DNA from: a bacterium
Lineage (GTDB): Bacteria > Bacteroidota > Bacteroidia > Bacteroidales > FEN-979
NCBI GenBank assembly: GCA_037131065.1
Contig: JBAXRT010000003.1
Location: forward strand, 1 to 52,927
Length of the DNA: 52,927 nucleotides
Direction of reading: 5' to 3'
The position numbers and the translations under genes were made by a program. The notes under the pieces were generated by a model, which saw nothing but the letters and a program-made list of their open reading frames with translations, did no database searches and was not told the origin of the DNA. Of this stretch, positions 27,690 to 51,826 are shown one piece after another (positions within the stretch are counted from its first letter, which is position 1; the number at the start of each line of letters is the position of its first letter).

Positions 27690-30600
27690 ATGATACTCCG
27701 GAAAAAAAGCCTTCTCCCCTTCCTGCTGCTCCTTACTTTCACAGGGTTTAGCCAGCAATACTTTTTTTCCGACTACTCCATCGAAAAAGGATTATCGCAA
27801 AGCGTGGTCAATGCACTGCTGCAGGACTCCGAAGGCTATATCTGGGTGGGAACCCAGAACGGACTGAACAAGTTCAACGGTTATTCTTTCAGGGTATATG
27901 CCTCCGACCCGGAAGATACCACCTCCATCTCCACCAACTGGATCTATTCGATCGATGAGGATAAATATGGGGATCTCTGGATTGGGACCAAGAGCGGGCT
28001 CAACCGGTACATCCGGAAAGAGAACAAATTCGAGAGGATCACCGACAAAGCCACCAGCTCACTGAATATTTCCGGATTTGTGTATGACGCCATCGTTGCA
28101 CGCGACGGCAAGATCATTATCAACATGCCCCCGGTCCTGGCCATCTATGACCCGGTAAAAAAGGAATTTTCACACCATTACGCAAAGATCGAGTATGACG
28201 GTTCCATCAAGGACAATAAAATCCCGTTGCTGGAAGATTCCCGGGGCATCATCTGGATCGGATCAACCCGAGGCCTCTCATGCTTCGACCGGGCAAAGAG
28301 GGAATTCACCTACTTCCTGCCTGATCCCGCTAAAAATGGCTCTATCGGCGACCGTAACATCACCGCGCTTTGCGAGGATAGGAGAGATAACCTCTGGGTT
28401 GGAACCACTGCCGGTCTCTATCTCTACGACAGGAAGGACGGCACCTTCATAAAGTTTGCACATGATCCGGGTAATAAGTTCTCCCTCCGAAACAACTTCA
28501 TCCGCGCCATCGCTGAAGACCGCTTCGGGAATCTATGGATTGGCACCGAAGAGGGAGGACTCACCAGGATGAGGCCATACAACGGCGGCCAACCGGTTTT
28601 CGAGGTATTTACAAACGAAAATTCGGGACTCAGCCACAACATCGTCCTTTCCCTCACCATTGATCACTCCGATAATTTGTGGATCGGTACCCTTAAGGGA
28701 ATGAACAAGACCGACCTGAAGAAACAGAAGTTCCAGCTTTACCGGAAAGGCCCATTCCCTTATTCGGTCGACCTCCTGGGCAATGTCGTCGCCTCCCTCT
28801 ACAAGGATGACAAGGGGATTATATGGATCGGGAACTGGGGCCAAGGGCTCAACATGTTCGACCGCAAGACCTGGAAGGTCCGGCATTTTTCGTCCCGGCA
28901 TACCGGGAATGATTATATCCCCAACGATTATGTCCATGTCATCTTTGAAGATGCCGACAACAGGGTCTGGATCGGGACCCGCGACGGTATCCTGATCTGG
29001 GACCCGACCAGGAACCGCTTTATCCCCTTCGGGAGCTATTTTACCGATAAGAGGCTGCATGATTTTACAGGAGTACGGATCAACATGATCATCCAGGACC
29101 GAAGTCGGAACTACTGGATCGGAACAGCCAACGGACTTTACAAGATCAACCTTGTAACCGCTGCCTCCGAACATTTCACCAAAGAGGCTGAACCCGGCAA
29201 CCGGATCGCCTCCAACCTGGTTTACTGCCTCCTGGAGGATCGCACAGGGCTGGTCTGGATTGCCACGGGTGAAGGACTTGATGTGTATAATCCCAGGAAC
29301 AGGGATTTGCAACATTACAGGAAAAATTCCTCTTCCACCAACTCACTTTGCGATAATTTTGTGGTCTCCCTGGGCGAGGATCACGAAGGGAACATCTGGA
29401 TCGGAACTACTTCCTACGTCAATAAATTCGTTAAAAAGGATTCCACATTCACTTACTACTCCCAGAAGAACGGACTGCCCGACAACCAGGTGTTCGAGAT
29501 CCTCGAAGATGACAAACGCAACCTGTGGTTTGCAACCGGCCACGGGCTCTGCCGTTTCGACAGCGCCTCCGGCACCTTCCGTACCTACTCCATCGAAGAG
29601 GGACTGCAGAGTCTCGAGTTCAACCTAAGGGCACGGTGCAAGGGGATCGACGGGGAGATCTTTTTCGGCGGGATGAATGGCTTCAACTCCTTCTACTCCG
29701 ACTCGCTCACCGACAATCCCTTCGTCCCGAAAGTGGTCTTTTCGGCATTTTCCAAGACAAACAACAAAGGGGTTACTACCCAGCTCGACGTGGACACCGT
29801 GAAGGAGGTGAACCTTCGTTATGTCGACCAATCCTTCACCATCGAGTTTGCAGCACTGGAATATACCAACCCTGAAAAGAACAGGTATGCATACAGGATG
29901 ACCGGGATTTCCGATGAATGGATCGACATCGGGAACCGGCGGTTCGTCCCCTTTTCCAACCTCCCGCCGGGAGAGTACACCTTCAACGTTAGATGTTCCA
30001 ACAACGACGGGATATGGAACGAAGAGGGGAGGAGCCTGAAGATCATCATAAGTCCTCCGTGGTGGAGAAGCCGCATCGCCTATATCGCTTACTTTGTGAT
30101 GATCATCCTGGCCGTGTTCCTCTATATCCGGCGGAGAGAGAGGAAACTGGTGCGGGAGAGGGATCACCTCGAACAGAAGGTTCAGGAGCGTACCGACCAG
30201 ATCGAAAAGCAAAACCGGGAGCTCAAGGAGCTCAACGCCACAAAGGACAAATTCTTCTCCATCATTGCCCACGACCTGCGGAATCCATTCAACACCATCC
30301 TGGGGTTGTCGGACCTGCTGCTGTCGAATTTTAAAAACTACGAACAGGAGAAAATCAGGAAATCGGTGAGCGACATACGGGATGCCACGCGCCATACCCA
30401 CGACCTGCTCGAGAACCTGCTCATCTGGGCCCGGACACAGACAGGTACCCTCGATTTTAAGCCTGTGGAGCTGAACCTGGGAGAAAGGATCGCCGAAGCC
30501 ATAGACCTTCTCAAAGGCCAGGCCGACAAAAAGAATATCACCCTTCAGGCATCCGTTTTGGTCGACTGCGGGGTTACGGGCGACAAAAACATGATCGACA

Positions 30601-30923
30601 CGGTCCTGCGCAACCTGGTGACCAACGCGATCAAATTCACTCCCAAGAACGGTGAAGTGATCGTTTCGATGGCACAGGTGGGAACCGAATGTGAGATTTC
30701 TGTGAAGGACAACGGCATCGGTATAGCCCCGGAAAACACTAAGAAACTCTTCAAGATCCACGGTAAATACTCTCGAAAAGGGACCGACCAGGAGCGTGGC
30801 TCAGGGCTGGGACTCATTCTCTGCCGGGAGTTTGTTGAAAAGCATGGCGGAAAGATATGGGTTGAGAGCACCCCCGGAGTGGGGAGTACCTTCAAATTCA
30901 CCCTGCCGGCCGGCAGGAAATAG
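27690..30923 (+). CDS. Sensor histidine kinase with two-component-regulator propeller and Y_Y_Y domains (no receiver)
   Basis: Many D..G.IWIGT..GL repeats; LPPGEYTF; TM; IIAHDLRNPF; NLVTNAIKFT, DNGIG, GSGLGL. Confidence 0.92.
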   Translation: MILRKKSLLPFLLLLTFTGFSQQYFFSDYSIEKGLSQSVVNALLQDSEGYIWVGTQNGLNKFNGYSFRVYASDPEDTTSISTNWIYSIDEDKYGDLWIGTKSGLNRYIRKENKFERITDKATSSLNISGFVYDAIVARDGKIIINMPPVLAIYDPVKKEFSHHYAKIEYDGSIKDNKIPLLEDSRGIIWIGSTRGLSCFDRAKREFTYFLPDPAKNGSIGDRNITALCEDRRDNLWVGTTAGLYLYDRKDGTFIKFAHDPGNKFSLRNNFIRAIAEDRFGNLWIGTEEGGLTRMRPYNGGQPVFEVFTNENSGLSHNIVLSLTIDHSDNLWIGTLKGMNKTDLKKQKFQLYRKGPFPYSVDLLGNVVASLYKDDKGIIWIGNWGQGLNMFDRKTWKVRHFSSRHTGNDYIPNDYVHVIFEDADNRVWIGTRDGILIWDPTRNRFIPFGSYFTDKRLHDFTGVRINMIIQDRSRNYWIGTANGLYKINLVTAASEHFTKEAEPGNRIASNLVYCLLEDRTGLVWIATGEGLDVYNPRNRDLQHYRKNSSSTNSLCDNFVVSLGEDHEGNIWIGTTSYVNKFVKKDSTFTYYSQKNGLPDNQVFEILEDDKRNLWFATGHGLCRFDSASGTFRTYSIEEGLQSLEFNLRARCKGIDGEIFFGGMNGFNSFYSDSLTDNPFVPKVVFSAFSKTNNKGVTTQLDVDTVKEVNLRYVDQSFTIEFAALEYTNPEKNRYAYRMTGISDEWIDIGNRRFVPFSNLPPGEYTFNVRCSNNDGIWNEEGRSLKIIISPPWWRSRIAYIAYFVMIILAVFLYIRRRERKLVRERDHLEQKVQERTDQIEKQNRELKELNATKDKFFSIIAHDLRNPFNTILGLSDLLLSNFKNYEQEKIRKSVSDIRDATRHTHDLLENLLIWARTQTGTLDFKPVELNLGERIAEAIDLLKGQADKKNITLQASVLVDCGVTGDKNMIDTVLRNLVTNAIKFTPKNGEVIVSMAQVGTECEISVKDNGIGIAPENTKKLFKIHGKYSRKGTDQERGSGLGLILCREFVEKHGGKIWVESTPGVGSTFKFTLPAGRK

Positions 30924-30925
30924 TA

Positions 30926-31468
30926 TCAGGAAGGGAGGGTCAACCCCAGCTCCGTTCGGCACTTCAGGCAAAGATTACGGCTTTTCTGGTCAATATCCTC
31001 CACGTAGGTGCTCGACCGCATCACGCAGGTGGGTGCATGACAATGGATCAGCCCGAACATATGACCCAGCTCATGATTCACCTCCTTCGTGAACCGCTCC
31101 AGCAGAGTATCCCCGCCGCCGCCGATCCCGTAACGTTCACTGCTGAGCCTGTAAACCGAGGCGATTCCGGTGCGACCTCCCAGGTATGCCTGCCCGAAAA
31201 TATAGGTCAGGATGGGAATAAAGAGATCGACGCTGAAGAGGCCCAGCGTCTTTGAGGATTCAGGCTGGGTAAGGGTATCAACCACCTTCAGCAGCTCATT
31301 GCCGTTGTACTGCCTGCGCCCCGGATCGTAATATTCACTCAGATCGAGATGAGTCTCCTGAATGGCGATGGCGGCAAGGAATTCGGATCTTACCGCCTCG
31401 GCGGTCTTCTCCAGGAACTCCCGCTCAAAATGCCCAAAAGGGATTAATGTGATTTGCTGCTGATCCAA
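30926..31468 (-). CDS. Archaemetzincin-family Zn metalloprotease (peptidase M54)
   Basis: HELGHMFGLIHC, Met-turn CVM, D.KS..LCLKC; RRQY; TTG start abutting the regulator stop. Confidence 0.9.
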   Translation of the reverse strand: MDQQQITLIPFGHFEREFLEKTAEAVRSEFLAAIAIQETHLDLSEYYDPGRRQYNGNELLKVVDTLTQPESSKTLGLFSVDLFIPILTYIFGQAYLGGRTGIASVYRLSSERYGIGGGGDTLLERFTKEVNHELGHMFGLIHCHAPTCVMRSSTYVEDIDQKSRNLCLKCRTELGLTLPS

Positions 31469-32812
31469 TTAACCGGCGGGTTGTTTCAAATCATATTTCC
31501 TGATCTTGTTGTAAAGCGTTACCCTGTCAACCTTCAGGGCCTTGGCCGTTCGGGTGATGTTCCAGCTGTATTTGTTAAGGATCTGCAGGATGAAGGCCTT
31601 CTCGAATTCATCCAGGCTCTCCACCGAGCTGTCGATCATCTCCTTGCCGAAGGGCAGGTCCCTGAGGTAGATCCTCTTGCCGTTCCCAACGACAATAGCC
31701 CGTTCAATCATATTCTCCAACTCACGGATGTTCCCCGGAAAAGTGTACTCCTCGAGCCGCTGCATGGCCGGCGGATCGATGGTGATAAGGGGCTTGTTCA
31801 TCGAGATGCAGTATTTGTTGATGAAATAATCAACCAGCAGCGGGATATCCTCTACCCTGTCGCGCAGTGGGGGAACATTGATGTTTACCACGTTGAGACG
31901 GTAGTAGAGATCTTCGCGGAAGGTACCCTGCTCCACCATGCTCTTCAGGTCGCGGTTCGTGGCACAGATCACCCTGAAGTCGGAGCAGATCTCCTTGTTG
32001 CCTCCCACACGCACAAAGCTTTTCGTCTCAAGAACGCGCAACAGCTCGATCTGCATCTTGGGTGAGATGGTTGCGATCTCATCAAGGAAGATCGTCCCGC
32101 TGTCGGCCATCTCGAACCTCCCTTTCCGGTTGAACATCGCCCCTGTAAAGGCTCCCTTCTCATGGCCGAAGAGTTCGCTCTCAAGCAGGCTCTCAGTGAG
32201 TGCCCCACAATGGACGCTGACCAGAGGATAAAACTTCCGCGGGGAGTTGGCATGGATGGCCCGCGCCACCAGCTCCTTTCCGGTGCCGCTCTCGCCAGTG
32301 ATGATCACCGAGGAGTTCGACTGCGCCACACTCTCGATCTCGTGAAGCACTTTTTTCATTGCTTCACTTTTGCCGATCAGGTCTTCCACATTTTCGAGAG
32401 AGACCACCCTGCTCTTCAGGCTCTCATTTTCTTCTGCAAGGGCGATCTGCTTCGAGGCATTGCGGATCAGGTGCGACAGGTCGTCGGGGTCAAAAGGCTT
32501 GGTGACATAATCGAAAGCACCGTCCTTCAGTGCCATCACGGCCGTGCTGACGGTGGCGAAAGCCGTCATGACGATCACGATCGAATCCTTTTTCAGCGCT
32601 TTGATCCTGCGCAGCATCTCCAGCCCGTCCATGCCAGGCATCTTGATATCGGCCAGGATGATGTCATAATCGTCCGACTCGAGGATCAACAGAGCCTTCT
32701 TCGCATTCTCGGCGCATTCAACCCGGTAACCGTCCTCCTGGAACCAGTTGGTCAGAGAATCCCTTACCGACTCCTCATCATCGACGATTAAAATTGAAAT
32801 CTGTTTTGCCAT
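31469..32812 (-). CDS. Sigma-54-dependent (NtrC/AtoC-family) response regulator
   Basis: Receiver VDDE/LADIKMP; GESGTGKE; ESELFGHEKGAFTGA; FREDLYYRLNV; Fis-type HTH. Confidence 0.95.
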   Translation of the reverse strand: MAKQISILIVDDEESVRDSLTNWFQEDGYRVECAENAKKALLILESDDYDIILADIKMPGMDGLEMLRRIKALKKDSIVIVMTAFATVSTAVMALKDGAFDYVTKPFDPDDLSHLIRNASKQIALAEENESLKSRVVSLENVEDLIGKSEAMKKVLHEIESVAQSNSSVIITGESGTGKELVARAIHANSPRKFYPLVSVHCGALTESLLESELFGHEKGAFTGAMFNRKGRFEMADSGTIFLDEIATISPKMQIELLRVLETKSFVRVGGNKEICSDFRVICATNRDLKSMVEQGTFREDLYYRLNVVNINVPPLRDRVEDIPLLVDYFINKYCISMNKPLITIDPPAMQRLEEYTFPGNIRELENMIERAIVVGNGKRIYLRDLPFGKEMIDSSVESLDEFEKAFILQILNKYSWNITRTAKALKVDRVTLYNKIRKYDLKQPAG

Positions 32813-32822
32813 TATAATCAGT

Positions 32823-34496
32823 TTAAGATTTGATCAGGGGAAATGTGAATGACATGGTCGTTCCGTGGCCCGGCTCCGATTTTACATTGATCTTGCCATT
32901 ATGGCTCTGCACGATGCCGTGAACGATTGCGAGCCCGAGCCCTATGCCGCTGGCATCCTGCTTGGTCGAGAAGAAGGGCTCGAAAATATGGGGAAGGTCC
33001 TCGGCCGAGATGCCGATCCCGTTGTCGGTGATCTCCACGCGGATGGTCTCATCCCCGGGGTTCATCGTGCGGATCGTGATCTCGCCGTTCTCGAGGATCG
33101 CCTCTTTGGAATTCACCAGCACAGCCACAAAGGCCTGCTTGATCTGGTTCGGACTGCAGTAGATCTGGTCCGACTTTGCAGTAAAATCGGAATAGAACAT
33201 GATGTTCGAGATCTTGATCGGGTGGGTCATCAGGTCAAAGGTCTCCTGCAAGATCTCATGGAGATGCCTCGGTTCAAAATCGTTCTGGTCCTTTCGTGAG
33301 AAATCGAGTAGCCCCTTGACGATATCTCCGCACCGTTTGGTCTCGTTCTCGATCATCGTCAGGTTCTTCAGGATCGTCTCTCGCTTGGCATCCGTCAGGT
33401 CGGGATTGCTTAGCTGCTTGTGGATCAGCTTCGTGTAGACCAGGATCCCCGAGAGCGGGTTGTTGATCTCGTGGGCCACCGAGGAGGAGAGCTTGCCCAG
33501 CGAGGCGAGCCGCTCGATATGGATGAGCTCGTTTTGCGCAGCGCTCAGCTCTTCCGACTTCTTCTGGACCTTGTACTCCAGCTGTTGCGACCAGTTCTCC
33601 AGCTCGCTGGTGGCCGCCTGCAGGTTGTCGAGCATGTCGTTAAAAGCGAGAGAGACTACCCGCATGTCGTCGAGCTGGTTGGGTTTGATATCAACACGTG
33701 TGCTCTTGTCACCGCTGGCCACCGCAACACTTGCTTTAAGCAGCGCATTCAGGGGGTTCTTGATCTCTTTGCGGGTGAAGAGGATCAGGAATGAGACCAG
33801 CAGCAGGGTGGCTAAGGTAGCCAGCAAATAGAACTCCATAGAGGATTTTTCCACCGCATTGTCGAGGTCCCTTAGCGGCAACTTGATCACCAGTGATCCC
33901 AGCACCCGGTCAGTTGGTTGGTGTGCGTGGCAGGAGGCTTCGTAACAGGCTTTCTGGTTGAGGATCGGAGATTTGATCAGCAGGTGCCGGTGGTCGTTGT
34001 CGTTCTTGTTCATCTTGCATTCGCTCTTGATGCTGATGATCTTGTAAGTCTTTTCCGTGGCAGGGAACATCGTCTTCAGGTTGTCGTGGCAACCCTTGCA
34101 GTCGGAGCTGGCATGGTTTCCGGCTCCATCGGGTGCAAAGGAAGAGTAGACCAGGTTGTCCTGGCTGTCGTACATGTTCACGTCCTCAATCCCCGGCATT
34201 TTGTGGATGATGTCGAGCGTGCTTTGCAGAGCACTCTTGTTGTTCTCGACCATTGAGTGGTAAAGCGCGCTCTCGACAAGCGACCCTACGTTGGTACCGC
34301 TCTGACGGATCACGGTGTTCATATACTCTTCATAAACCGACCGGAAGATGACGCCGAACGAAACGAAAAGGATCAGTGAGGAGAAGGTGATGATCAGAAC
34401 CACCCGCCCGTAGATAGAGGAGCGGAACTTGATATAGTTTCTCAGGAAGGTCTTGCCGAGCGGGTTTTTGTTCCTGTTTTTTCCAAAGAGAGTCAT
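32823..34496 (-). CDS. NtrB-type sensor histidine kinase with periplasmic CxxCH/CX4CH motifs and HAMP domain
   Basis: Two TMs; CKGCH and CYEASCH; VAHEINNPL; DNGIG, FEPFFSTK, GLGL; ATG 34496. Confidence 0.9.
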   Translation of the reverse strand: MTLFGKNRNKNPLGKTFLRNYIKFRSSIYGRVVLIITFSSLILFVSFGVIFRSVYEEYMNTVIRQSGTNVGSLVESALYHSMVENNKSALQSTLDIIHKMPGIEDVNMYDSQDNLVYSSFAPDGAGNHASSDCKGCHDNLKTMFPATEKTYKIISIKSECKMNKNDNDHRHLLIKSPILNQKACYEASCHAHQPTDRVLGSLVIKLPLRDLDNAVEKSSMEFYLLATLATLLLVSFLILFTRKEIKNPLNALLKASVAVASGDKSTRVDIKPNQLDDMRVVSLAFNDMLDNLQAATSELENWSQQLEYKVQKKSEELSAAQNELIHIERLASLGKLSSSVAHEINNPLSGILVYTKLIHKQLSNPDLTDAKRETILKNLTMIENETKRCGDIVKGLLDFSRKDQNDFEPRHLHEILQETFDLMTHPIKISNIMFYSDFTAKSDQIYCSPNQIKQAFVAVLVNSKEAILENGEITIRTMNPGDETIRVEITDNGIGISAEDLPHIFEPFFSTKQDASGIGLGLAIVHGIVQSHNGKINVKSEPGHGTTMSFTFPLIKS

Positions 34497-34634
34497 GGCT
34501 TTCTTTATTAGATTGAGATGAGAGAGTGCGATCCGGCGGAATTTACAGCAATATAAAAAAAACTGGTGAGGTGACACCAGTTTTGTGTAATCTTTTTCTT
34601 CCGGAGCCTTTGTTAATGGCTTCGGCAGGACCCT

Positions 34635-35363
34635 TTACGCCGGCATCTCCTTCGGGGTCAGGAAGTCTTTCTGGAAATCCTGCCATAACTCGTTGGGTAA
34701 TTCCGAAAGGGAGTTGTCGCGCAGTTCGCCTCCGTCCTGCAGGACAACAGCTGAGGTCTCCGGTGAGAACTTCCCGATCTCCTTTGCCAGGAAATCTTTA
34801 TACCGGATCAGCTCCATGTTCAGCCACTGGGTGGCATCCTCGGCCAGGTAATAACTCTGTGTCTCCGCCTTCCAGTGCGAGGGTTTGATCTTGCAGACCC
34901 ACCCCTTTCCATAAGGATCCATGTTCACAAGCCCCGGTTCGCTTCCAAGCGCCAGGTTGATGTCGGTGACCCGACCCGAGATGGGTGAATAGATCTTAAG
35001 ATGTTTTCCCCCCTGGTCTATCTCTGCAAGGAGTTCCCCTTTGCGGATCATGTCACCATTTTGTCTGATGGTATTGAACTTCACCTGGCCGGTGATGTGC
35101 ATCAGCAGGTCGCTGAGACCTACCCTGGCATTTCCCGACCGTTCGAGATGTGTCCAGGTGTGGTTGGCGCTGAAGAGCAATCCCTGCGGGATCTTCAGGA
35201 TGTTCGCCGTCAGTGTGCCCAGCACCTTTTCAAGGTGCCTGGTCTTCTTCACCTGCCTGTTGAGAATCACCCAGAAGGGGATAAGCAGCAGGAGGAAAGC
35301 GATGATAAAGAGGTATTCCATCCCCTTTGTTTCAAAAATGTTCAAATAACTGTACCCGTCCAT
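34635..35363 (-). CDS. Membrane-anchored glycine-cleavage-H-like protein
   Basis: N-terminal TM; HTWT, ARVGL, IYSPISG, DPYGKGW; extra LQDGG C-terminal extension. Confidence 0.85.
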   Translation of the reverse strand: MDGYSYLNIFETKGMEYLFIIAFLLLLIPFWVILNRQVKKTRHLEKVLGTLTANILKIPQGLLFSANHTWTHLERSGNARVGLSDLLMHITGQVKFNTIRQNGDMIRKGELLAEIDQGGKHLKIYSPISGRVTDINLALGSEPGLVNMDPYGKGWVCKIKPSHWKAETQSYYLAEDATQWLNMELIRYKDFLAKEIGKFSPETSAVVLQDGGELRDNSLSELPNELWQDFQKDFLTPKEMPA

Positions 35364-35414
35364 GGCTTTATGATTTACGATTTACAAATTTCCTTTTTCC
35401 AATTACTATTTTTC

Positions 35415-35446
35415 TAATGACTTAATGCCCTAATGACTTAATGACT
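35415..35446. repeat. Octamer tandem repeat (TAATGACT-like x4)
   Basis: taatgact taatgccc taatgact taatgact spanning the NrfD-gene stop. Confidence 0.7.
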
Positions 35447-36673
35447 AACATCCTTCTTCGCCCACTCCGGCGAATCCCTGAGTACGGGCATCCGGTTGAT
35501 GACCCAGCGGAAGATCCAGATCTCGGTAAAGATCACAGCCAGCGTCACGACGATCTCCATCCAGGAGGGAACATAACGGATTGGCATGTCCCACCTGAAA
35601 CCGATCACGGTCACATTGAGCCTGTTCAGGATGATCCCCAGCATGGTCAGGACGGAAGCGAATCTTACCAGGAACACGTTGTTCCTCCGGTAGCTGTAAA
35701 AGAAGAGGATCATCGGAAGCAGAACGAATCCGAACATCTCAAGCATGTACCAGTATCCCATGGATGTGTTCAGGTAGATCCAGTTCTTCCCATGGATAAA
35801 GACCAGCATCTGCAGGAAGAAATAAGCGAACATCGCTCCGGCACACATTTTTGATAGCCCGAGGATGATCCCGTTCTGCGAATGGTGGTTCTTTCCGCTC
35901 AGCTGGTTTGCAAAGACCTTATGGGTGATCGACCCTTCGAAGATCACCATCGAAAGCCCGGCAAAAATGCTTGAGACAAAGAACATAATGGGGATGAAAT
36001 CAGAATACCACAATGGGTGGATCTTGTCTTTGGCCATCATGTAAAGCGCCCCGAGTCCCGACTGGTGCAGGATAGAAAGGGTGATCCCGAAGATGACCGC
36101 TGCGAGCGTCATCCCCGAGAGGATCTTGTGGATGCGCCTTGCCCCGAGCCATTCGGCAATCGCCGGCGAGAATTCGATCAGCTGCGCGATCATGTATAGA
36201 AGGAAATGCCAGGCCACGAGGAAGAGCACCGAGTTGTACCCAAAGTTGTTCCCGATGATGGGATTGATCACGTTCCACGGGCGGCCAAGGTCAAGCAGCA
36301 GCGCCCCGGCGTAAAAGACATAGGCCAGGAAGCCGTTGAGAACCGTCACACGAACGATCGAATGGTATTTTTTTACATTCAGGATGTAGACGATGAAGCA
36401 GAGCACATAGGCACCCCCGGCGAAGGCAACACCGGTGACGACGTCGAACCCGATCCATAACCCCCAGGGGATGTCCTGCGAAAGGTTGGTGATGGCCCCG
36501 AGCCCTTTCCAGAACCGGATCACGATCAGCGCGAGTCCGAGCAGGATAATGGGAACGGAGATAATGTTGAATGGGGTAAAGATCTTCCCCTTCGGCTTAA
36601 GCTCACTCAGGAAGAATTTCCAGGTAGATTTGCCGCTATTCTCGATGGTTACAGGCATGGTCTCATTCATCAT
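35438..36673 (-). CDS. NrfD/PsrC-family membrane subunit (HybB/HmcC-like)
   Basis: PWGLWIGFDV..GVAFAGG, LDLGRPW, LHQSGLG, HPLWYS, NRLNV, YVPSWME. Confidence 0.9.
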   Translation of the reverse strand: MMNETMPVTIENSGKSTWKFFLSELKPKGKIFTPFNIISVPIILLGLALIVIRFWKGLGAITNLSQDIPWGLWIGFDVVTGVAFAGGAYVLCFIVYILNVKKYHSIVRVTVLNGFLAYVFYAGALLLDLGRPWNVINPIIGNNFGYNSVLFLVAWHFLLYMIAQLIEFSPAIAEWLGARRIHKILSGMTLAAVIFGITLSILHQSGLGALYMMAKDKIHPLWYSDFIPIMFFVSSIFAGLSMVIFEGSITHKVFANQLSGKNHHSQNGIILGLSKMCAGAMFAYFFLQMLVFIHGKNWIYLNTSMGYWYMLEMFGFVLLPMILFFYSYRRNNVFLVRFASVLTMLGIILNRLNVTVIGFRWDMPIRYVPSWMEIVVTLAVIFTEIWIFRWVINRMPVLRDSPEWAKKDVSH

Positions 36674-37529
36674 CTTGATCCTCCCTGGTTTCGTTTTTCT
36701 TGGTTGCTTGCTGGATACCCAGTAAAAGGGCTGGTACCAGGACGAAGATCGAAGGGACGCTGTAGAGGAAGCCCTTCGATAACGCCGGGTAGGAAGATTT
36801 CTGGAGGTTGGTCTTTAAACCGAGCTCACCGAAAGGCACTGGCGAAAGCATCATCCATCCCGTTCCGCCGGCATCATGTTCGCCGTAGATCTGGTCGTGG
36901 TAAAGTTCAGGTTTCTCATAGATCCTTCTCCTGGCCTCGCGGATCAGTTCACGCCGCTTTCCATACATCAGCGCCTCGTTCGGGCAGTTCTGTACACAGG
37001 CGGGTGCTTCACCGATCTTGAGTTTTTCGTAACACATCGAGCACTTTTGGATCTTTGGATTGGCACTGTGGTATTCGAATTTTGGGATGTCGAACGGACA
37101 GGATACCATGCAATAGCGGCATCCCATGCATTTTTCGCCACGCCAGATCACCGGGCCCACTTTGGTCTTGTGCATGGCCTGGGTAAGACAGGCTGCGGCA
37201 CAGGCCGGTTCGTTACAATGCATGCATTGTGTCTTCATGAAGACGGTGCCCTTGGTGGTCTTGAATTCGTTCACGACCGTATTGCGGGTATCGCTGGTCC
37301 GTCGTGGACCCTTGATATCTTTTGCCGGCTCGGGCAGGGGCAGCCCGTTGGCGTCGGCGCAGTCATACTCGCAGCCCCGGCAGCCTTTGCAACGGGCGGC
37401 ATCATAGAGAACCCCGCGGAACTCTATGGCCGTTTCACCGGAAGGAGCCGCCTGCATCTCGTTCCCGATGGCAAGCGTTGCTCCCGTCGCCGCAACTACC
37501 TTGAAAAAATTTCTTCGATTGATTCCCAT
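36663..37529 (-). CDS. Tat-exported 4Fe-4S dicluster protein (HybA/HmcB/NrfC-like)
   Basis: NRRNFFK twin-Arg signal; CKGCRGCEYDC, CMHCNEPACAAAC, CMGCRYCMVSCP, CSMC..PACVQNCP; C-terminal TM. Confidence 0.92.
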   Translation of the reverse strand: MGINRRNFFKVVAATGATLAIGNEMQAAPSGETAIEFRGVLYDAARCKGCRGCEYDCADANGLPLPEPAKDIKGPRRTSDTRNTVVNEFKTTKGTVFMKTQCMHCNEPACAAACLTQAMHKTKVGPVIWRGEKCMGCRYCMVSCPFDIPKFEYHSANPKIQKCSMCYEKLKIGEAPACVQNCPNEALMYGKRRELIREARRRIYEKPELYHDQIYGEHDAGGTGWMMLSPVPFGELGLKTNLQKSSYPALSKGFLYSVPSIFVLVPALLLGIQQATKKNETREDQDDE

Positions 37530-37570
37530 AATGGTAGCATTAGTTTTTGGTTGATGAAGGTTGATGATGA

Positions 37571-39265
37571 TTAGTTTGCTGTGTCAATAAATCTCGTCTG
37601 GAATTCCTCCCATACCTCCGGTCCCATGTCGGCCAGGATGTGGTCCTTCATAGCGCCACCGTCCTGCAGCACTACGCTGGCGTACCCTGGAGTATTGCCC
37701 CTCAGCGTGATGGCGAGAAAATCCTTCAGGCGGGTGAACTCCTGGTTCAGCCAGGCCTTGTACTTGTCGGCCATGTTCATGAACTGGATCTCACGGAGCC
37801 AGTTCGACGGCTCAATGCGGTAGATCCAACCGTCGGCATAGGGTGAAGTGTTGAGGGCGGAAGAGTTTGCTGAAAGGGCACCGTTCGATTCCATGATTGT
37901 TCCCGTGATCGGGGAGTAGATGTTCAGCTGCTTTCCCTTCTGGATGATCGAGAGCACTATATCGCCCTTACGGACCTTTTCACCGGGATTCTTCATCTCG
38001 ATACGTGTGATCGGGCCGGTGATGTGCTGCAGGAAGTCGTCGATGCCTATCTTAACCTTCCCGTTCTCCTCCATGAAGGCCCAGGTATGACTCTTGTCGA
38101 AAAAGAGTCCTTTCGGGATTACCATCGAGTTCTCGTCGAAGATACCGTTGGCTTCAGCACTTCCCGGTTGCATGGAAGCCCTGTGGCCGCGTACGCGGCG
38201 CAGGACGAGGTCAACGATGATGCTCAGCACAAGGATCCCTGAAAAGATAAGGATCAGCAGCGTGGAGATGGGGATCCCGGCAAATTCACTGCCGCCGGCG
38301 ACTACCGCTGGACTCAGCCTGTTGACGGCCATCTGGCGCTCATTGTAGCCAAGATCGGAATATCCGAATGCTCCCAGGAAACGCTGCCCGTCGGTGAGGA
38401 GCCAGTTCATGAAAGCCACCTCAACCTCGCCCGAAGGTTCACTCGGGGCGACGGTGAAGATGTCACTGCTCAGGGCCTTCGGGAATTTTCCGATCCATAC
38501 CCCGCGGGTGAAGCTCTCGGGAGTGGCATAAATATCTTCCATATAATCAAGCCTGCCGTTTGCGTTCTTGTCGAGCGGCAATATTTTGATGTTTCCGGTA
38601 AATTTCCTGCCAGAGGGGTCAACAACACATGAAAGATTGCAGAATCCGATGGCATTGGGATCAGCCTGGATGGCTGCGATCATGTCGCGTTCGTTCATCG
38701 TCTTCAACCCGGCGATCTTCTCCTGGGCAACACCGGTGAACCTTGAAATACCATTTGAAACCAGCCCGTCGTCCGACATATAAAGATGGAGAGGGGAATC
38801 GTGGCGGCCCCCAAGGAGTGTTGTCCAGTTTTGGTTTGCCGGATCCTCCAGCAGCCTTTTCAGCGCATCGGAGGAGACCCCCTGCTTCATGATCTCGGCC
38901 AGGTAGGGATTTTCCTGGTTGATAACCGGCACCACAACGTCGCGGCCAACGACAAGCCTCCAGATCTGGTCATCCTTCACCGTGGAGTAATATCCGGCTG
39001 AGATAATGCTGATGTTTTTTTCGGACCGAAGGATCTTTTCGGGATTATTGTCGGTAATGTCGCTAACCTTGACCGTTGCCTGCGGGTTTACCCTTGAGAA
39101 CTCGGCTGCCCACCGGGAGGAGAGGTCAAACAGGTCGGGAGAGGTGTAAACGACGATGGAACCCGAGAGAGTGGATTGAACTTTCAGCCGGGTATCATCT
39201 GCGCGTAAAGAATTGCCGCTGAGAATGATGAACAGGCCGATTAAGATTGTGATACTGGTTTTCAT
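37571..39265 (-). CDS. PstS-like periplasmic binding domain + TM + cytoplasmic GcvH-like domain fusion
   Basis: Signal peptide from ATG 39265; WAAEF...P, VGRDVVVPVIN, DPNAIGF, FMNWLLTDGQ; TM; HTWA..KIGIDDF, IYSPITG, SPYADGW, LQDGG. Confidence 0.82.
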   Translation of the reverse strand: MKTSITILIGLFIILSGNSLRADDTRLKVQSTLSGSIVVYTSPDLFDLSSRWAAEFSRVNPQATVKVSDITDNNPEKILRSEKNISIISAGYYSTVKDDQIWRLVVGRDVVVPVINQENPYLAEIMKQGVSSDALKRLLEDPANQNWTTLLGGRHDSPLHLYMSDDGLVSNGISRFTGVAQEKIAGLKTMNERDMIAAIQADPNAIGFCNLSCVVDPSGRKFTGNIKILPLDKNANGRLDYMEDIYATPESFTRGVWIGKFPKALSSDIFTVAPSEPSGEVEVAFMNWLLTDGQRFLGAFGYSDLGYNERQMAVNRLSPAVVAGGSEFAGIPISTLLILIFSGILVLSIIVDLVLRRVRGHRASMQPGSAEANGIFDENSMVIPKGLFFDKSHTWAFMEENGKVKIGIDDFLQHITGPITRIEMKNPGEKVRKGDIVLSIIQKGKQLNIYSPITGTIMESNGALSANSSALNTSPYADGWIYRIEPSNWLREIQFMNMADKYKAWLNQEFTRLKDFLAITLRGNTPGYASVVLQDGGAMKDHILADMGPEVWEEFQTRFIDTAN

Positions 39266-39347
39266 AGCTTCATTTTTTATCATTATAGTATATTGGGAAT
39301 CATTTGATGGAGATTTTCGTTCTGTTGATTTCTGCAACACTTTCTAT

Positions 39348-39364
39348 TACAATAAAGGTGCCAA
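39348..39364 (-). promoter_or_regulatory. Candidate sigma-54 -24/-12 promoter
   Basis: Minus strand TTGGCACCTTTATTGTA; correct GG-N10-G spacing, with GT instead of GC at -12. Confidence 0.7.
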
Positions 39365-39510
39365 ACTCGAAATCCTATTGTAATAAACTAAATAACAAAT
39401 ATATACCAACATATATGGTTTTTGTGAAAAATTACATAATATGATTAAAAATTCAACACAAAATTTTGAAATATGAATTAAATGATTATAAATCAGTATA
39501 TTTAACATTG

Positions 39511-39548
39511 GTGTATAAAAAATCAACAAGTGTTGAAAATATATACAC
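39511..39548. promoter_or_regulatory. Candidate enhancer (UAS): two TGT-N11-ACA boxes in dyad arrangement
   Basis: GTGTATAAAAAATCAACA-AG-TGTTGAAAATATATACAC, about 150-185 bp upstream of the -24 box. Confidence 0.55.
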
Positions 39549-39632
39549 AATATCTATTGTATTCTGTTTTGCCTTTTGTGTTAAAGAATGTTAAAAACAC
39601 GCTAACTTTATTCCCTTAAATTCCATTTTGAA

Positions 39633-42524
39633 ATGAAAAAAATTCTTAAGATCTCTGCCATCACCTTCGGGGTGATTCTCTTCCTTCTGCTTGCGCTCCT
39701 CCTCACACCATTGCTATTTAAAGATAAAGTAGCCGAAGTCCTTAAGAACACCGCAAACAAATCGCTGCGAACCGAAGTGAATTTCTCCGGGATGGAGCTC
39801 TCATTCTTCCGCCACTTTCCCAACCTTACCGTCACACTCTCTGACCTAACCTTGAAGGCCTCCGCACCATTTACCGGTGATACGCTCATTGCAGCCCGCG
39901 ACATCTCTTTCGGGATTAATCTTAAAAGTCTCATAAAAGGCCCCATCGAGATCACACGTGTATATATAAACAAGGGAAAGATCATTCTGCAGTATAACGA
40001 AAAGGGAGCCTCCTCCTTCGACATCTTCCCGCCCTCTTCCTCCGATACCGCAAGCACAGACACTACAACCGGCATTGCGAAGTTCCAGGTCGAGAGTATC
40101 GCCTTCATCAAGACCGACTTCATCTATTCCGACCCCTCAATCCCACTCAAGGTGGTTGCCCATGGCATCAACTACCATGGCAAGAGCCTTCTTACCAACG
40201 ACATCCTCCGGCTCACCTCCCGGGTGCAGATCGATTCGCTCGACTGCATTTATAACCGTGTAGCCTTCATCAGGTCGAAACCGGTGCGAGCAAACCTCTC
40301 CACCCGCATCAACCTCAACTCATTCGAGATGAAGTTCGACAAGAACGATTTCTATATCAGGGATGTCCCCTTCGAATTCCGCGGGGAGTTCTCCTTCCGC
40401 AAAAAGGGGTACGACCTCTTTCTCTCCCTTTTCTCCATGCTGGGCGAGGAATACATCAGCGGCTCGGTAAGGCTCATCAGCGAGGAGAACCTCTGGCTCT
40501 TCGTCAAGACGGACATCAACCTCAACCTGGAACCCTGGAGCAAAGCCCTGGGCGTAAGCGACGTGGAACTCCGGGGACTCTTTTCGATGAAACTTAATGC
40601 CGAAGGGGAGTTCCGCACAGGGCAGAACCCTGACAGCCGCGAGCCCGACACCATCCCATTATCCATTCCCAATTTCACCCTCAACTCGAAACTGGTTAAC
40701 GGGTACTTCCATTATAAAAAGCTGCCCGAAGCCCTCACCGGGATCTCCTTTGTCCTCGACCTTTCAACAACGGGGAATGATTACAACAACCTGAAGATCC
40801 AACTTGAGGACCTGAAAGCCGGTTTCATGAAGAACAAGATTGAAGGCTTCTTTCGTCTCGACGGATTCAGGGATCTGCCAATCGAAGCCAATCTCTTTAC
40901 CACGGTGAACCTGGAAGAGCTGCGCCGGGTGATCCCCCTCGACAGCATCGATCTGAAAGGCATGCTCGAGCTGAACCTGTTTGCAAAGGGAAAGTATGCC
41001 CCAGAGAAGAAACTTTTCCCCGAAACACGGCTTTCCCTGAACATGACCGGAGGATCCATCCTCACGAAATATTATTCCCGTCCGGTGGAGAAGATCGAAG
41101 TATCGGCCACCGTCACCAACAACACAGGGAAGGTCGACGATACCAAGGTATCCATCGCAAAGGCTGGTTTCTCTTTTGAAAACAACCCTTTTGAGCTTAG
41201 AGGGGAGATCGCCAACCCGGAGAATCTCCGTTACGACCTGACCTCGAAAGGATCAATCGACCTGGCCCGGATCTACAAGCTCTTTGCCATGACCGGCATG
41301 GACCTGAAGGGTTACATTGGCACCGACCTTGCCCTGAAGGGTCGCCAGAGCGATGCATTGGCCGGGCGCATCGAAAAGCTCCACAACATGGGGAAGCTGG
41401 TACTCCGCGATATCGACTTTACTTCGGAATTCCTGCCAAAGCCACTGGTCCTCAAGTCGGGGATCTTCCGCTTCGAGAACGACAAAATCTGGTTCGAGAA
41501 GTTCAAAGCCCGCTACGGCGCCTCCGACATCACCCTCGACGGCTACCTCTCCAACATCGTGAACTATCTTCTTGCGAAGGAGCAGCCACTGAAGGGCAGC
41601 CTCACCTTTAAATCCGACTACCTCCTCGTGGATGAGTTCGAATCCCCGGCAGGGGCAGGAACAACGGTTGTTTCCGAAGAAACTGCGGGACCTTCAGGCG
41701 TCATCGTGATCCCGAAAGAGCTGGAAGTGGCCCTCAATGCCAAAATGAAGCGAGTCAGTTTCCGGAAACTGGAGCTGAAGGATCTCGCTGCCAGGGTGGA
41801 GGTAAAGAAAGGAATGCTCCTCCTCAAGGATATGAACTTTGAAGCGGCCGGGTGCAAAGTGGGCATGGAAGCCACCTATACAAGTATCACACCAGTGAAA
41901 GCCTTTTTCGACTTTACCGTCAAGGCGCAGGATTTCGATGTGAAACGGGCGTACAACGAGGTGGAGCTCTTCCGTAAGCTCTCCACAGTCGCTGGGAAAT
42001 GTGAAGGAATTATCTCTCTGGACTATGCCCTCAAAGGACAGATTGGTCCCGGGATGGGCCCGATCTATCCCTCGCTGGAGGGTGGGGGCGTGGTCACACT
42101 GAAAAAGGTGAAAGTGATGGGATACAAGATGCTTAACGCCATGGGCAGCAACCTTGGCAAGGAGAAGATAAAAAATCCCGAACTCACGAAAGTCGAACTA
42201 AAGACCACGATAAAGAACAATATCATAACCCTTGAAAAGGTGAAGATCAAAATGTCGGGTTTCCGCCTGAGGATCGCCGGGGAGACTAGCTTTGACGGTG
42301 GTCTCAACTTCAAAGCCCGGCTGGGGCTCCCGCCGCTTGGGATCATCGGCATCCCGATGCGCATTCTCGGAACCCAGGAGAACCCGAAGTTCAAATATGG
42401 CCACGGGAACCAGGATGAAGATCTCGACGAGAGCGTCTATACCGATGAGATCCCGCAGGAGATGATGGATAAGATCAAAAATGCGAAGGAGGAGGATCTC
42501 AAGGAAGATCCGGACCAGCAGTAG
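39633..42524 (+). CDS. AsmA family protein
   Basis: N-terminal TM, LSFFRHFPNLTVTLSD, long beta-rich body, AsmA-type C-terminus (IAGETSFDG, ILGTQENP). Confidence 0.85.
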   Translation: MKKILKISAITFGVILFLLLALLLTPLLFKDKVAEVLKNTANKSLRTEVNFSGMELSFFRHFPNLTVTLSDLTLKASAPFTGDTLIAARDISFGINLKSLIKGPIEITRVYINKGKIILQYNEKGASSFDIFPPSSSDTASTDTTTGIAKFQVESIAFIKTDFIYSDPSIPLKVVAHGINYHGKSLLTNDILRLTSRVQIDSLDCIYNRVAFIRSKPVRANLSTRINLNSFEMKFDKNDFYIRDVPFEFRGEFSFRKKGYDLFLSLFSMLGEEYISGSVRLISEENLWLFVKTDINLNLEPWSKALGVSDVELRGLFSMKLNAEGEFRTGQNPDSREPDTIPLSIPNFTLNSKLVNGYFHYKKLPEALTGISFVLDLSTTGNDYNNLKIQLEDLKAGFMKNKIEGFFRLDGFRDLPIEANLFTTVNLEELRRVIPLDSIDLKGMLELNLFAKGKYAPEKKLFPETRLSLNMTGGSILTKYYSRPVEKIEVSATVTNNTGKVDDTKVSIAKAGFSFENNPFELRGEIANPENLRYDLTSKGSIDLARIYKLFAMTGMDLKGYIGTDLALKGRQSDALAGRIEKLHNMGKLVLRDIDFTSEFLPKPLVLKSGIFRFENDKIWFEKFKARYGASDITLDGYLSNIVNYLLAKEQPLKGSLTFKSDYLLVDEFESPAGAGTTVVSEETAGPSGVIVIPKELEVALNAKMKRVSFRKLELKDLAARVEVKKGMLLLKDMNFEAAGCKVGMEATYTSITPVKAFFDFTVKAQDFDVKRAYNEVELFRKLSTVAGKCEGIISLDYALKGQIGPGMGPIYPSLEGGGVVTLKKVKVMGYKMLNAMGSNLGKEKIKNPELTKVELKTTIKNNIITLEKVKIKMSGFRLRIAGETSFDGGLNFKARLGLPPLGIIGIPMRILGTQENPKFKYGHGNQDEDLDESVYTDEIPQEMMDKIKNAKEEDLKEDPDQQ

Positions 42525-46656: not shown

Positions 46657-46664
46657 GGTTTAGA

Positions 46665-47909: not shown

Positions 47910-47972
47910 AGATTTATCTAAGGTTTTTTTAGCAATTCTTCCTCTCACAAATATTCCCGAAGAGTATGAGAA

Positions 47973-49648: not shown

Positions 49649-49734
49649 GATCAGGGTTGACTTAATTGGTCACATCCCATGCCATAAAAACACCCAATTG
49701 CAATCACATACATTTCAACAATTGTATAAGGTGT

Positions 49735-50493: not shown

Positions 50494-50557
50494 GTGGGTC
50501 GAATGTTAAAAAATAGGGATTAACTCAATTTTTAAAATTCAAACTACTAATCTAGCA

Positions 50558-51124: not shown

Positions 51125-51129
51125 AGTGC

Positions 51130-51729: not shown

Positions 51730-51826
51730 AGGTTAAAAAATCATTGTTGCTTTTCTCTGCACTCTAGGCAATGACAAAATTCGTCATACAAAATTCGTTG
51801 TTCAATTTTCGAATTTCATTTTCCTT

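Follow-up and report, generated by a model that had tools for sequence, protein, structure and literature searches.

The stretch of DNA analysed here (the window) is contig C3, 52,927 nt long, of a 3.07 Mb metagenome-assembled genome that is 93.9% complete. It carries a cassette of seven genes, g1 to g7, encoding two GcvH-like proteins (g1 and g4) on either side of an iron-sulfur (Fe-S) protein (g2) and an NrfD-family membrane subunit (g3), followed by a sensor kinase with two haem-c motifs (g5), a sigma-54-dependent response regulator (g6) and an archaemetzincin-family protease (g7). This gene set is real and widely conserved. We propose, with middling confidence, that the periplasmic two-haem kinase and the sigma-54 regulator induce a menaquinol:periplasmic-cytochrome module, in which the GcvH-like proteins serve as regulatory or adaptor subunits. 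The seven open reading frames (ORFs) all lie in the same direction on the minus strand and cover positions 30926-39340. A first-pass annotation of this DNA had already listed seven co-oriented genes with these kinds of domains, and all of them are present in the ORF calls and in matches to Pfam and NCBIfam.

Conservation of the set was assessed in a scan of one genome per species, which found 251 genomes with a relative of g4. The best 80 loci, from Bacteroidia, were kept and searched with all seven proteins, and counts of related loci given below refer to these 80 or to subsets of them. All seven genes occur in the same order and on the same strand in 58 of the 80 loci, and another 18 are collinear but cut by a contig end. 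The first gene lacks its periplasmic binding protein (PBP) domain or is damaged in four loci (L060, L064, L075 and L082). The genes that flank the set in the window, which encode an AsmA-like protein and a Reg_prop/Y_Y_Y kinase, are not kept beside it in related loci. The nearest relatives of the window genes belong to records named Bacteroidales, Prolixibacteraceae, Lentimicrobiaceae and the like. The distribution of the cassette is patchy: when the order was sampled at one genome per family, 5 of 61 had it, against 2 of 401 genomes in a sample of the class and 16 of 401 in a sample of the phylum, where non-self matches are 30–37% identical and 10 of 17 fall in one family. The named relatives of the distant copies in the phylum sample are Ignavibacteria. 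The set has the same order there, without the PBP domain, and its proteins are 21–44% identical to those of the window, except for the regulator (55–58%). Fifteen of these distant loci were compared gene by gene. Eight encode a membrane-anchored, PBP-less GcvH-like protein, the Fe-S protein, NrfD, a second GcvH-like protein, the kinase, the regulator and the protease; two have the full set except for the second GcvH-like protein, which is not detectable by tblastn; two are cut by a contig end and three are variants. A profile of the GcvH-like family, run against 1.84 billion representatives, matched 410 clusters (50% identity) at E <= 1e-30, of both short and PBP-fused types. A chance juxtaposition of the seven genes is ruled out by these conservation counts (58 of 80 loci collinear, together with the Ignavibacteria loci). 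The gene set thus travels together, as the neighbourhood analysis called for in the first-pass annotation finds both in the 58 collinear and 18 contig-cut loci and in its recurrence in Ignavibacteria.

The signals upstream of g1 are conserved as well. A sigma-54-type -24/-12 promoter element, TGGCACCTTTATTGT (39349..39363, minus strand), was identified by pattern match and by conservation in relatives. Its TGGCAC-N5-TTGT sequence fits nine of ten specified positions, with TTGT at -12 here and TTGA or TTGG in most relatives. An equivalent element lies ahead of g1 in the relatives, matching at 9/10 positions in 39, at 8/10 in 24 and at 7/10 in one of the 64 upstream regions available, usually 40–130 nt before the start; simple arithmetic gives an expectation of a 9/10 match in about 1% of such regions in random sequence. 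Most Ignavibacteria loci have the same element ahead of the first GcvH-like gene, and rpoN was found in the genome of the window. Since the GTG at 39340, to which the g1 reading frame extends, abuts the promoter element, g1 likely starts at ATG 39265 (MKTSITIL, with a signal peptide) or at ATG 39283.

Further upstream, 62 regions together contain 178 copies of the dyad TGT-N11-ACA, as compared with 5.6 ± 2.3 in shuffled sequence (maximum 12) and with 5–64 for dyads of other spacings. At least one dyad is present in all 62 regions and at least two in 57. Measured from the -24 element, the sites lie at four places, some 190, 170, 100 and 70 nt upstream. This layout reads as two pairs of binding sites for an enhancer-binding protein, and g6 would be their natural binder. 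In the window, distal enhancer (upstream activating sequence) site 1, GTGTATATATTTTCAACAC (39530..39548, minus strand), lies about 183 nt upstream of the -24 element and is directly abutted by site 2, TTGTTGATTTTTTATACAC (39511..39529, minus strand). A weaker proximal site, GTGTTGAATTTTTAATCAT (39441..39459, minus strand), has one arm reading TCA instead of ACA and sits at the position near -100 that holds 45 sites of related loci. When the 176 sites of the 61 other loci were made into a profile and the whole genome was scanned with it, the two best matches were sites 1 and 2 (24.2 and 22.9 bits), with the proximal site at 15.7 bits. The strict dyad motif has two matches in 3.07 Mb, both at this locus (39511-39548), and no cluster of three loose TGT-N11-ACA sites was found in the whole genome. 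Because the best profile matches and the strict motif occur just here, this locus is the only visible target of the sites in the genome, and because its sites are the two best matches genome-wide, the circuit appears to be dedicated to it. The sigma-54 promoter and enhancer dyad that had been read from the sequence at first pass are therefore conserved features, the dyad being the site pair at 39511-39548. A lone profile match at C75:4323 of the same genome (19.1 bits) is the best outside the cassette's own upstream region.

The same annotation had pictured a single autoregulated seven-gene operon, a picture that is not supported, as a terminator-like hairpin lies between g4 and g5. The hairpin, AAAACTGGTG-(loop)-CACCAGTTTT followed by a T-run (34550..34584, minus strand), has a 10-bp stem and is conserved in relatives: of 74 related g4-g5 gaps, 50 have a comparable hairpin with a T-run, its stem varying in sequence, against an expectation from shuffles of 0.53 in 74 gaps (maximum 2). 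Such structures are present in 1 of 49 g6-g7 gaps and in 4 of 65 stretches after g7. From this conserved hairpin it follows that the seven genes most likely form two transcription units, a sigma-54-driven g1-g4 and then g5-g7. In genome G089, GcvH-FeS-NrfD-GcvH lies on one contig and kinase-regulator-protease on another. The second unit would need its own promoter or read-through; just past the hairpin, the sequence TATATTG resembles what we take to be the consensus of the Bacteroidota -7 element. The reading frame of g5 extends to a GTG at 34577, and because this codon falls within the hairpin, ATG 34496 is the likely start.

The first unit encodes what looks like a working quinone- and proton-handling module rather than a relic. 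The g2 product (36663..37529, minus strand) is a predicted Tat (twin-arginine translocation)-exported 4x[4Fe-4S] protein. It belongs to the HmcB/HybA/NrfC type and would be anchored by a helix at its C-terminus, as judged from Pfam, NCBIfam and conserved cysteines. Its best NCBIfam matches are HmcB (318 bits, equivalog cut-off 420) and then HybA (225.3 bits, cut-off 263), and its Tat signal scores 19.3 bits with TIGR01409 (cut-off 16.7). All 16 cluster cysteines, in four motifs, are 100% conserved in 71 sequences, and RR-x-F is present in 70 of the 71. The g3 product (35438..36673, minus strand) is a HmcC/HybB-like, presumably quinone-interacting NrfD-family subunit (PF03916, 51.3 bits against a cut-off of 25.8; HmcC 403 bits, cut-off 550; HybB 242.4 bits, cut-off 450). 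It is 28% identical to Escherichia coli HybB and shares 17 of 25 listed functional residues with it, including D58, R89, Y99, E148 and H184. The residue list comes from a review of the NrfD family, the accessible part of which reports that replacing D58, R89, Y99, E148 or H184 impairs hydrogenase-2 (PMC8076601). Across 79 g3 sequences, the equivalents of D58, D109, S129, R89, Y99, E148 and H184 are kept in 73–79.

Several characterized systems resemble this pair. The Hmc, Nhc and Qrc complexes of sulfate reducers (HmcB/HmcC, NhcB/NhcC, QrcC/QrcD) likewise place a periplasmic four-cluster Fe-S protein on an NrfD-type subunit. The window module differs from them in having no cytochrome c subunit and no HmcDEF, in scoring under the equivalog cut-offs, in being bracketed by GcvH-like proteins, in its linkage to a haem kinase, a sigma-54 regulator and a protease, and in its host, which belongs to the Bacteroidota and is not a sulfate reducer. 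HybA-HybB of E. coli hydrogenase-2 shares the two-protein build and the Tat signal and tail anchor on the Fe-S protein, and the HybB residues in common include those whose mutation lowers hydrogen oxidation according to the accessible text of the review (PMC8076601). The differences are the 28% identity to HybB, the sub-cut-off equivalog scores and the lack of hydrogenase subunits near the window module. The Fe-S/NrfD pair has no catalytic or cytochrome subunit of its own in the locus. A catalytic subunit is likewise lacking from the Fe-S and NrfD pair Mros1571-1572 of Melioribacter roseus, from the Ignavibacteria lineage, in which the cassette occurs too. In the available portion of the Melioribacter paper, that orphan NrfCD pair is taken to reduce periplasmic multihaem cytochromes with quinol (PMC3534657), and no GcvH-like genes, kinase, regulator or protease are mentioned with it; here the two are likened by description.

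Candidate partners for such a reductase are encoded elsewhere in the genome of the window, where ORFs with 20, 15, 14, 11, 7 and fewer CXXCH motifs encode multihaem cytochromes. Contig C34 (419-16769) holds a cluster of multihaem cytochrome c ORFs with 20, 14, 11, 5, 5 and 4 CXXCH motifs, and further multihaem ORFs are found on C43 (18670-19857, 15 motifs), C16 (4958-9882, 7 and 5), C1 (6) and C10 (5). The cytochromes on these five contigs are candidate periplasmic partners and hint at extracellular electron transfer.

The kinase g5 (32823..34496, minus strand) is predicted to consist of a first transmembrane helix, a periplasmic PAS/PDC-like domain with CXXCH and CX4CH motifs, a second transmembrane helix and HAMP, HisKA and HATPase_c domains, the last three matched by Pfam. 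The two haem-c motifs read CKGCH and CYEASCH. The residues C160-x2-C163-H164, C187, C211-x4-C216-H217 and H219 are 100% conserved in 74 relatives, and both motifs, a nearby His and one Met are invariant in 43 kinases, including 11 Ignavibacteria copies at 21–24% identity. Invariance down to this level of identity bears out the earlier call of a putative haem sensor. An AlphaFold2 model of the sensor region, with a pLDDT (predicted local distance difference test) value of 78, shows a long helix followed by a five-stranded PAS/PDC-like domain. In Foldseek, this model matches an integrative WalK-YycH model best (E 2.4e-6), followed by the extracellular domain of WalK in crystal structures (about 1e-4), by GSU0935 (3b42) at 3e-4 and by GSU0582 (3b47) at 1e-2. 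At the sequence level, the sensor has no significant family in Pfam (best Cytochrome_P460, E 0.12), and the PDB yields only cytochrome c3, at E values that are not significant (2.1 and 4.2). The genome has genes for cytochrome c maturation (PF01578, two matches). The regulator g6 (31469..32812, minus strand) combines a receiver (PF00072, 113.8 bits), an AAA+ domain (PF00158, 236.9 bits) and HTH_8 (PF02954, 43.3 bits), as matched by Pfam and NCBIfam, and its AAA+ domain contains GAFTGA, which we take to be the motif of sigma-54-interacting domains. It is 75–88% identical across the 80 related loci and 55–58% in Ignavibacteria.

For the kinase and regulator, parallels are known from Geobacter. 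The c-haem PAS sensors GSU0582 and GSU0935 share with g5 a predicted PAS/PDC-like periplasmic domain with a c-haem motif. They differ in that they have no sequence-level match to g5, with modest TM-scores of 0.42–0.48 on target, and in that g5 carries two motifs (CXXCH and CX4CH) on a kinase, whereas the Geobacter domain sits on a chemoreceptor. In the accessible parts of two papers, GSU0599 is described as a two-component protein with two CX2-4CH motifs (PMC8396549, PMC3831638), and by its number it is next to GSU0598, the sigma-54 regulator BccR. According to the available text of a preprint, BccR induces the quinone oxidoreductase cbcBA at low potential, and GSU0597/GSU3489 are termed hypothetical (bioRxiv 10.1101/2021.04.15.440034). 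As described there, the Geobacter sulfurreducens circuit thus resembles the one proposed here: when the redox potential falls, a sigma-54 response regulator acts on a sigma-54 promoter to induce a quinone oxidoreductase of the inner membrane. It differs in its output, which is a cytochrome bc pair and not an FeS/NrfD module, and a GcvH-like protein or archaemetzincin is unreported in that portion of the source. None of the window's seven genes is a CbcBA-type output gene encoding cytochrome b or multihaem cytochrome c. The likeness is one of regulatory logic only; kinases and regulators are likened here by description.

Variants of the cassette indicate which of its parts can be exchanged. In G189, G245 and G365, a second, Qrc-like cassette encodes a GcvH-like protein, a multihaem cytochrome c, a molybdopterin-oxidoreductase-like protein, an FeS protein, NrfD and another GcvH-like protein, as assigned by Pfam on the G189 copy, from the same ORF order by size in G245 and from the membrane genes that were read in G365. 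Beside these cassettes lie genes for a kinase that also carries the two haem motifs, an archaemetzincin and a sigma-54 regulator, ordered kinase-protease-regulator. In the Qrc-like cassettes, the GcvH-like protein that comes first (L112 13445-14386, minus strand; L111 12336-13301, minus strand; L113 4179-5141, plus strand) has no transmembrane helix and carries a duplicated Cys-rich N-terminal motif, RCPFL.E..V.YC, which belongs to no Pfam family and could be a metal or cluster site. A paralogous Nhc-like module, with FeS, NrfD and multihaem c, takes the place of the bare FeS-NrfD pair in G149, where the genes for these three and for the same two-haem kinase are followed by two receiver-GcvH-like fusions, without a sigma-54 regulator or protease. 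The G149 receivers have the usual acidic pocket, and one of the two fusions has the C-terminal extension that is found in g1 and g4. In this variant, the two-haem kinase (L115 6270-8138, plus strand) has a zinc-ribbon-like insert (Zn_Ribbon_1, E 1.4e-4) in its ATPase region. A protein atlas holds a cluster of 101 receiver-GCV_H proteins, and among profile-search representatives of 320–505 aa there are no receiver fusions, only GCV_H. Since the GcvH-like domains of G149 are fused to receivers beside the two-haem kinase, it appears that a GcvH-like domain can be a direct phosphorelay output. From these variants, the GcvH-like pair and the two-haem kinase emerge as the constants, and the quinone module as exchangeable.

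Two further genomes lack the NrfD module altogether. What G073 (99% complete) and G261 (100%) retain is the sigma-54 promoter, the pair of GcvH-like genes and the genes for kinase, regulator and protease. Divergent from and beside the NrfD-less cassette of G073 (L089 11040-14616, plus strand) lie genes for a 680-aa protein, in which cytochrome c7/c3 domains are joined to a membrane domain of the cytochrome b561 type, and for a NapC/NirT-type multihaem cytochrome. The pair appears to be a different kind of quinol:cytochrome module in the place of FeS-NrfD, and no convincing sigma-54 promoter was found ahead of this cytochrome gene.

Based on these data, we propose that the g5 kinase would read the periplasmic redox state, meaning that of periplasmic cytochromes and ultimately of the quinone pool, and would phosphorylate g6. 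The regulator would then bind the TGT-N11-ACA sites, one pair some 190/170 nt and the other some 100/70 nt ahead of the -24 element, and open the sigma-54 promoter that drives g1-g4 (unit A), the output of the circuit. Unit A would be a minimal module of the Hmc/Nhc/Qrc type, a Tat-exported four-cluster Fe-S protein on an NrfD-type subunit, with g2 and g3 passing electrons between menaquinol and the multihaem cytochromes of the periplasm that are encoded elsewhere in the genome. The two GcvH-fold proteins would not be lipoyl carriers; facing the cytoplasm as regulatory or adaptor subunits, they would link the module with the kinase, g1 adding a periplasmic PBP-type input domain in this lineage. 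Unit B (g5-g7) would be the control part, with the kinase, the regulator and a dedicated archaemetzincin. In this scheme we infer the signal sensed, the direction of electron flow, the contacts of the GcvH-like proteins and the target of the protease. The locus had originally been interpreted as a circuit serving regulation "rather than ordinary respiration". That part of the interpretation is not supported: because the Fe-S/NrfD pair looks fully functional, is the target of the promoter and is swapped for cytochrome-bearing, Qrc- or Nhc-like modules in paralogous cassettes, the locus reads as a regulated electron-transfer module.

A number of points weigh against this proposal. The locus encodes no periplasmic partner cytochrome, and an ORF with at least three CXXCH motifs lies within 10 kb in just 5 of 55 related loci of at least 15 kb. 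In G073 and G261, no NrfD homologue was found in the locus or genome at E <= 1e-10, from which it follows that the GcvH-like proteins are not mere structural subunits of NrfCD and that the module is dispensable for the rest of the set. The assignment of g6 to the enhancer is based on position and conservation. The site at roughly -70 is degenerate in the window, leaving three recognizable sites, two of them exact, and no convincing sigma-54 promoter was found ahead of the Qrc-like paralogous cassettes in the stretch scanned. Should the regulator target its own locus alone, unit A could conceivably be purely sensing.

The protease appears to be a true, dedicated component of the set, because its copy number tracks that of the cassette. 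Protease copies number two in three genomes with two cassettes and one in two genomes with one cassette; G365 has an extra, weak match of 28.9 bits in a 913-aa frame. In the order sample (n=61), the cassette was found in 5 genomes and any M54 peptidase in 7. All 5 cassette genomes have a peptidase, and the 2 peptidase-only genomes have lower-scoring matches in longer reading frames; this co-occurrence is a description and not a test, as related genomes are not independent. The suggestion at first pass that the protease belongs to the system is thus supported by its copy number. The g7 product (30926..31468, minus strand) is a predicted cytoplasmic zinc protease that scores 152.9 bits with NF033823 (cut-off 145) and has an intact HELGHMFGLIHC-X4-CVM...CLKC signature, assigned from NCBIfam and from the sequence itself. 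The signature reads HELGHMFGLIHCHAPTCVM...CLKC, with a spacer of 16 residues before the CXXC, not 17, and its H, E, H, G and H and four C residues are invariant in 46 g7 sequences. For comparison, the archaemetzincin signature is given as HEXXHXXGXXHCX4CXMX17CXXC in the accessible part of the source (PMC3427221). With the archaemetzincins AmzA of Methanopyrus, AMZ-tk and human AMZ1/2, g7 shares the full extended signature; it differs from them in being a bacterial copy inside a two-component locus and in its 16-residue spacer. The family is conserved up to humans, and we know of no physiological substrate for it. The genomic linkage of g7 suggests a specific partner. In a complex prediction of the cytoplasmic parts of g4 and g1 with the protease, the score was 0.28 against a mark of 0.32, which without controls speaks neither for nor against a contact.

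It is possible, though we hold it only tentatively, that signalling has co-opted the GcvH fold as an output or adaptor domain. The cofactor-less pair, tethered to the membrane here and joined to receivers elsewhere, would then make up a portable control kit with the two-haem kinase and the archaemetzincin. The kit would be mounted on varied NrfD quinone modules, the bare FeS-NrfD pair as well as Nhc-like and Qrc-like ones, which it would tune post-translationally from the cytoplasm as well as via sigma-54, with the GcvH-like proteins or the regulator as archaemetzincin substrates. If true, these would be the first physiological substrates of an archaemetzincin.

The main rival reading, which we consider rather unlikely, is that the whole cassette is instead a sensor, in which FeS/NrfD would equilibrate the two haems of the kinase with the menaquinone pool, replacing the cytochrome subunit of Hmc/Nhc, the GcvH-like proteins would couple the pair to the kinase and the output would be the protease or an unseen target. 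The only cytochrome c of the locus is indeed the kinase's own haem domain, the FeS protein and the kinase sensor both face the periplasm, the protease is strictly linked to the set, and the enhancer motif points to this locus alone, with no other regulon member visible. However, the first target of the promoter is the FeS/NrfD unit, which is separated from the kinase by a terminator, the layout of a regulated output. The variants moreover carry full Qrc- or Nhc-like modules with multihaem cytochromes of their own, which a sensor accessory would not need, and the two genomes that keep the kinase set without NrfD indicate that the kinase is independent of NrfD.

The proposal that unit A is an induced electron-transfer module assigns a non-lipoyl role to the GcvH-like proteins. 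Protein g1 (37571..39265, minus strand) is predicted to comprise a signal peptide, a periplasmic PstS-fold PBP domain, one transmembrane helix, a GcvH-like domain and a C-terminal extension, and g4 (34635..35363, minus strand), assigned from Pfam and AlphaFold2, a short conserved N-terminus, one transmembrane helix, a GcvH-like domain and the same extension. From hydrophobic stretches and the positive-inside rule, the GcvH-like domains would be cytoplasmic and the PBP domain of g1 periplasmic. The Pfam family GCV_H is matched at 82.1 bits by g1 and at 84.6 bits by g4, while both fall well below equivalog level (71.4 and 74.6 bits with TIGR00527, cut-off 115.85; about 84 with NF002270, cut-off 117). 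A canonical GcvH with the lipoyl motif EAVKT is encoded on contig C14 (143.8 bits to Pfam GCV_H). The AlphaFold2 model of g4 (pLDDT 83.8) matches the H-proteins 1onl of Thermus thermophilus and 3ab9 of E. coli in Foldseek at E ~2e-12, with a TM-score of 0.90 on target and a root-mean-square deviation of 1.3–1.7 Å. The lipoyl lysine of 1onl and of the C14 GcvH, within the E-x-V-K-x motif, aligns with Gly119 of g4 and with a Gly of g1. This position is Gly in 139 of 151 family representatives, and a Lys follows one residue later in 144 of the 151; in the g4 model the strand that follows the turn begins with this displaced Lys. Relatives that are fused to receivers or belong to Qrc-like cassettes have Arg in its stead or lack it. 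Both g1 and g4 share a nearly invariant C-terminal extension of 60 residues (LQDGG ... W..FQ..F); that of g4 has no Pfam family, no Foldseek match outside the GcvH part and no protein-atlas match outside its own family. GcvH and the other lipoyl or barrel-sandwich-hybrid domains (GcvH-L, LbpA) have the GcvH fold in common with g1 and g4, which also give weak Pfam matches to RnfC_N and NQRA_N. The window proteins are distinguished by the Lys-to-Gly replacement, by membrane anchoring or receiver fusion and by the family-specific extension. The N-terminal domains of RnfC and NqrA are themselves cofactor-less and lie on the cytoplasmic side of membrane redox complexes.

Because the lipoyl position is Gly and the displaced Lys is not kept in the fused and Qrc-cassette relatives, a role as swinging-arm carrier is unlikely. 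We accordingly regard as quite improbable an explanation in which the displaced Lys bears lipoate or another acyl or thiol cofactor and connects the NrfD module with dithiol or sulfur reactions in the cytoplasm, much as LbpA serves sHdr and DsrC serves DsrMKJOP. The GcvH fold (TM-score 0.90 on target), the retention of the Lys in 144 of 151 representatives and the presence of two BPL/LplA/LipB-family genes in the genome would fit such carriers. However, the Lys is shifted by one, onto the next strand in the model, it is replaced by Arg or absent in receiver-fused and Qrc-cassette relatives, g1 and g4 score well under the GcvH equivalog cut-offs, and no cytoplasmic redox partner of the HdrD or DsrK kind was seen in any variant.

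The periplasmic domain of g1 scores 24.8 bits with PBP_like_2 in the whole protein and 27.1 bits when the domain is taken alone, which is borderline at a cut-off of 27. Its profile matches solved phosphate-binding proteins in the PDB (4pqj, E 6.9e-9; 4omb, 8.2e-9; 4h1x, 1e-7). In the aligned segments, which leave the central part of the domain unaligned, 'GSDTL' of 4pqj faces 'sSPDl' and 'AGSST' faces a non-conserved stretch; we take the GSDT and AGSST stretches to be the phosphate ligands of PstS. The domain is missing from all 15 Ignavibacteria loci. It is possible that it binds another ligand or makes contact with the sensor domain of the kinase. The extracellular anion input that had been suggested for this domain therefore loses its footing, with the PstS ligand motifs replaced in the aligned parts and the domain absent from the Ignavibacteria form. 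That the system senses an external anion such as phosphate through g1 and tunes transcription to nutrients, the redox parts being secondary, is very improbable: the profile matches to 4pqj and 4h1x and the 27.1-bit score of the isolated domain are in its favour, but 'GSDT' and 'AGSST' are replaced in the segments that align around an unaligned middle, and all 15 Ignavibacteria loci and 3 or 4 of the 80 related loci lack the domain yet keep the rest of the set.

No published description of the cassette was found in literature searches, whose coverage excluded supplements and subscription journals, as had been anticipated at first pass, and the same searches yielded no paper on lysine-less GcvH-like proteins, whether membrane-anchored or receiver-fused, or on a cassette-bound archaemetzincin. 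Several parts are of known kinds, namely the NrfD module, the c-haem PAS kinase and the sigma-54 regulator, and the regulatory logic parallels that of Geobacter. What appears to be new is the combination of parts, together with two unexplained components, the GcvH-like proteins and the archaemetzincin. NrfD-type modules link the quinone pool of many anaerobes with redox reactions in the periplasm, and to our knowledge little has been established about their regulation. The cassette offers a compact, testable case that brings together a periplasmic redox sensor based on haem, a mapped candidate promoter and enhancer and a minimal quinone module, and it could explain how Bacteroidota and Ignavibacteria rich in multihaem cytochromes switch between electron routes. 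It also brings to light two kinds of component without an assigned role: domains of H-protein fold that lack the lipoyl lysine and occur as response-regulator outputs as well, and an archaemetzincin that tracks the cassette. For the latter, the cassette is a first genetic handle on a physiological substrate.

The best sequencing-run match to the DNA of the locus is labelled freshwater metagenome, no RNA run is among the matches listed, and by word counts two metatranscriptome runs of the same study contained next to none of the locus's words. An Rfam scan of 30500-39800 gave zero families at the gathering score. Downstream of g7, on the plus strand, a gene at 27690-30923 encodes a Reg_prop/Y_Y_Y histidine kinase that lacks two parts normally present in Bacteroidota hybrid two-component systems, the receiver and AraC; it converges on g7, the two stops being 3 nt apart. 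Before it, at 23119-27570 (plus strand), lies a 1483-aa ORF that combines an AcrB-type resistance-nodulation-division pump (ACR_tran, 532 bits, residues 12-1016) with a C-terminal OEP domain (153 bits, residues 1306-1480) and is preceded by a gene for a membrane-fusion protein (22080-23129). Such a fusion of pump and outer-membrane channel would be unusual, and a missed stop or frameshift is possible. At the other end of the window, positions 46001-52000 have a G+C content of 0.37–0.41, as compared with about 0.50 elsewhere in the window, and may be a foreign or differently expressed segment.

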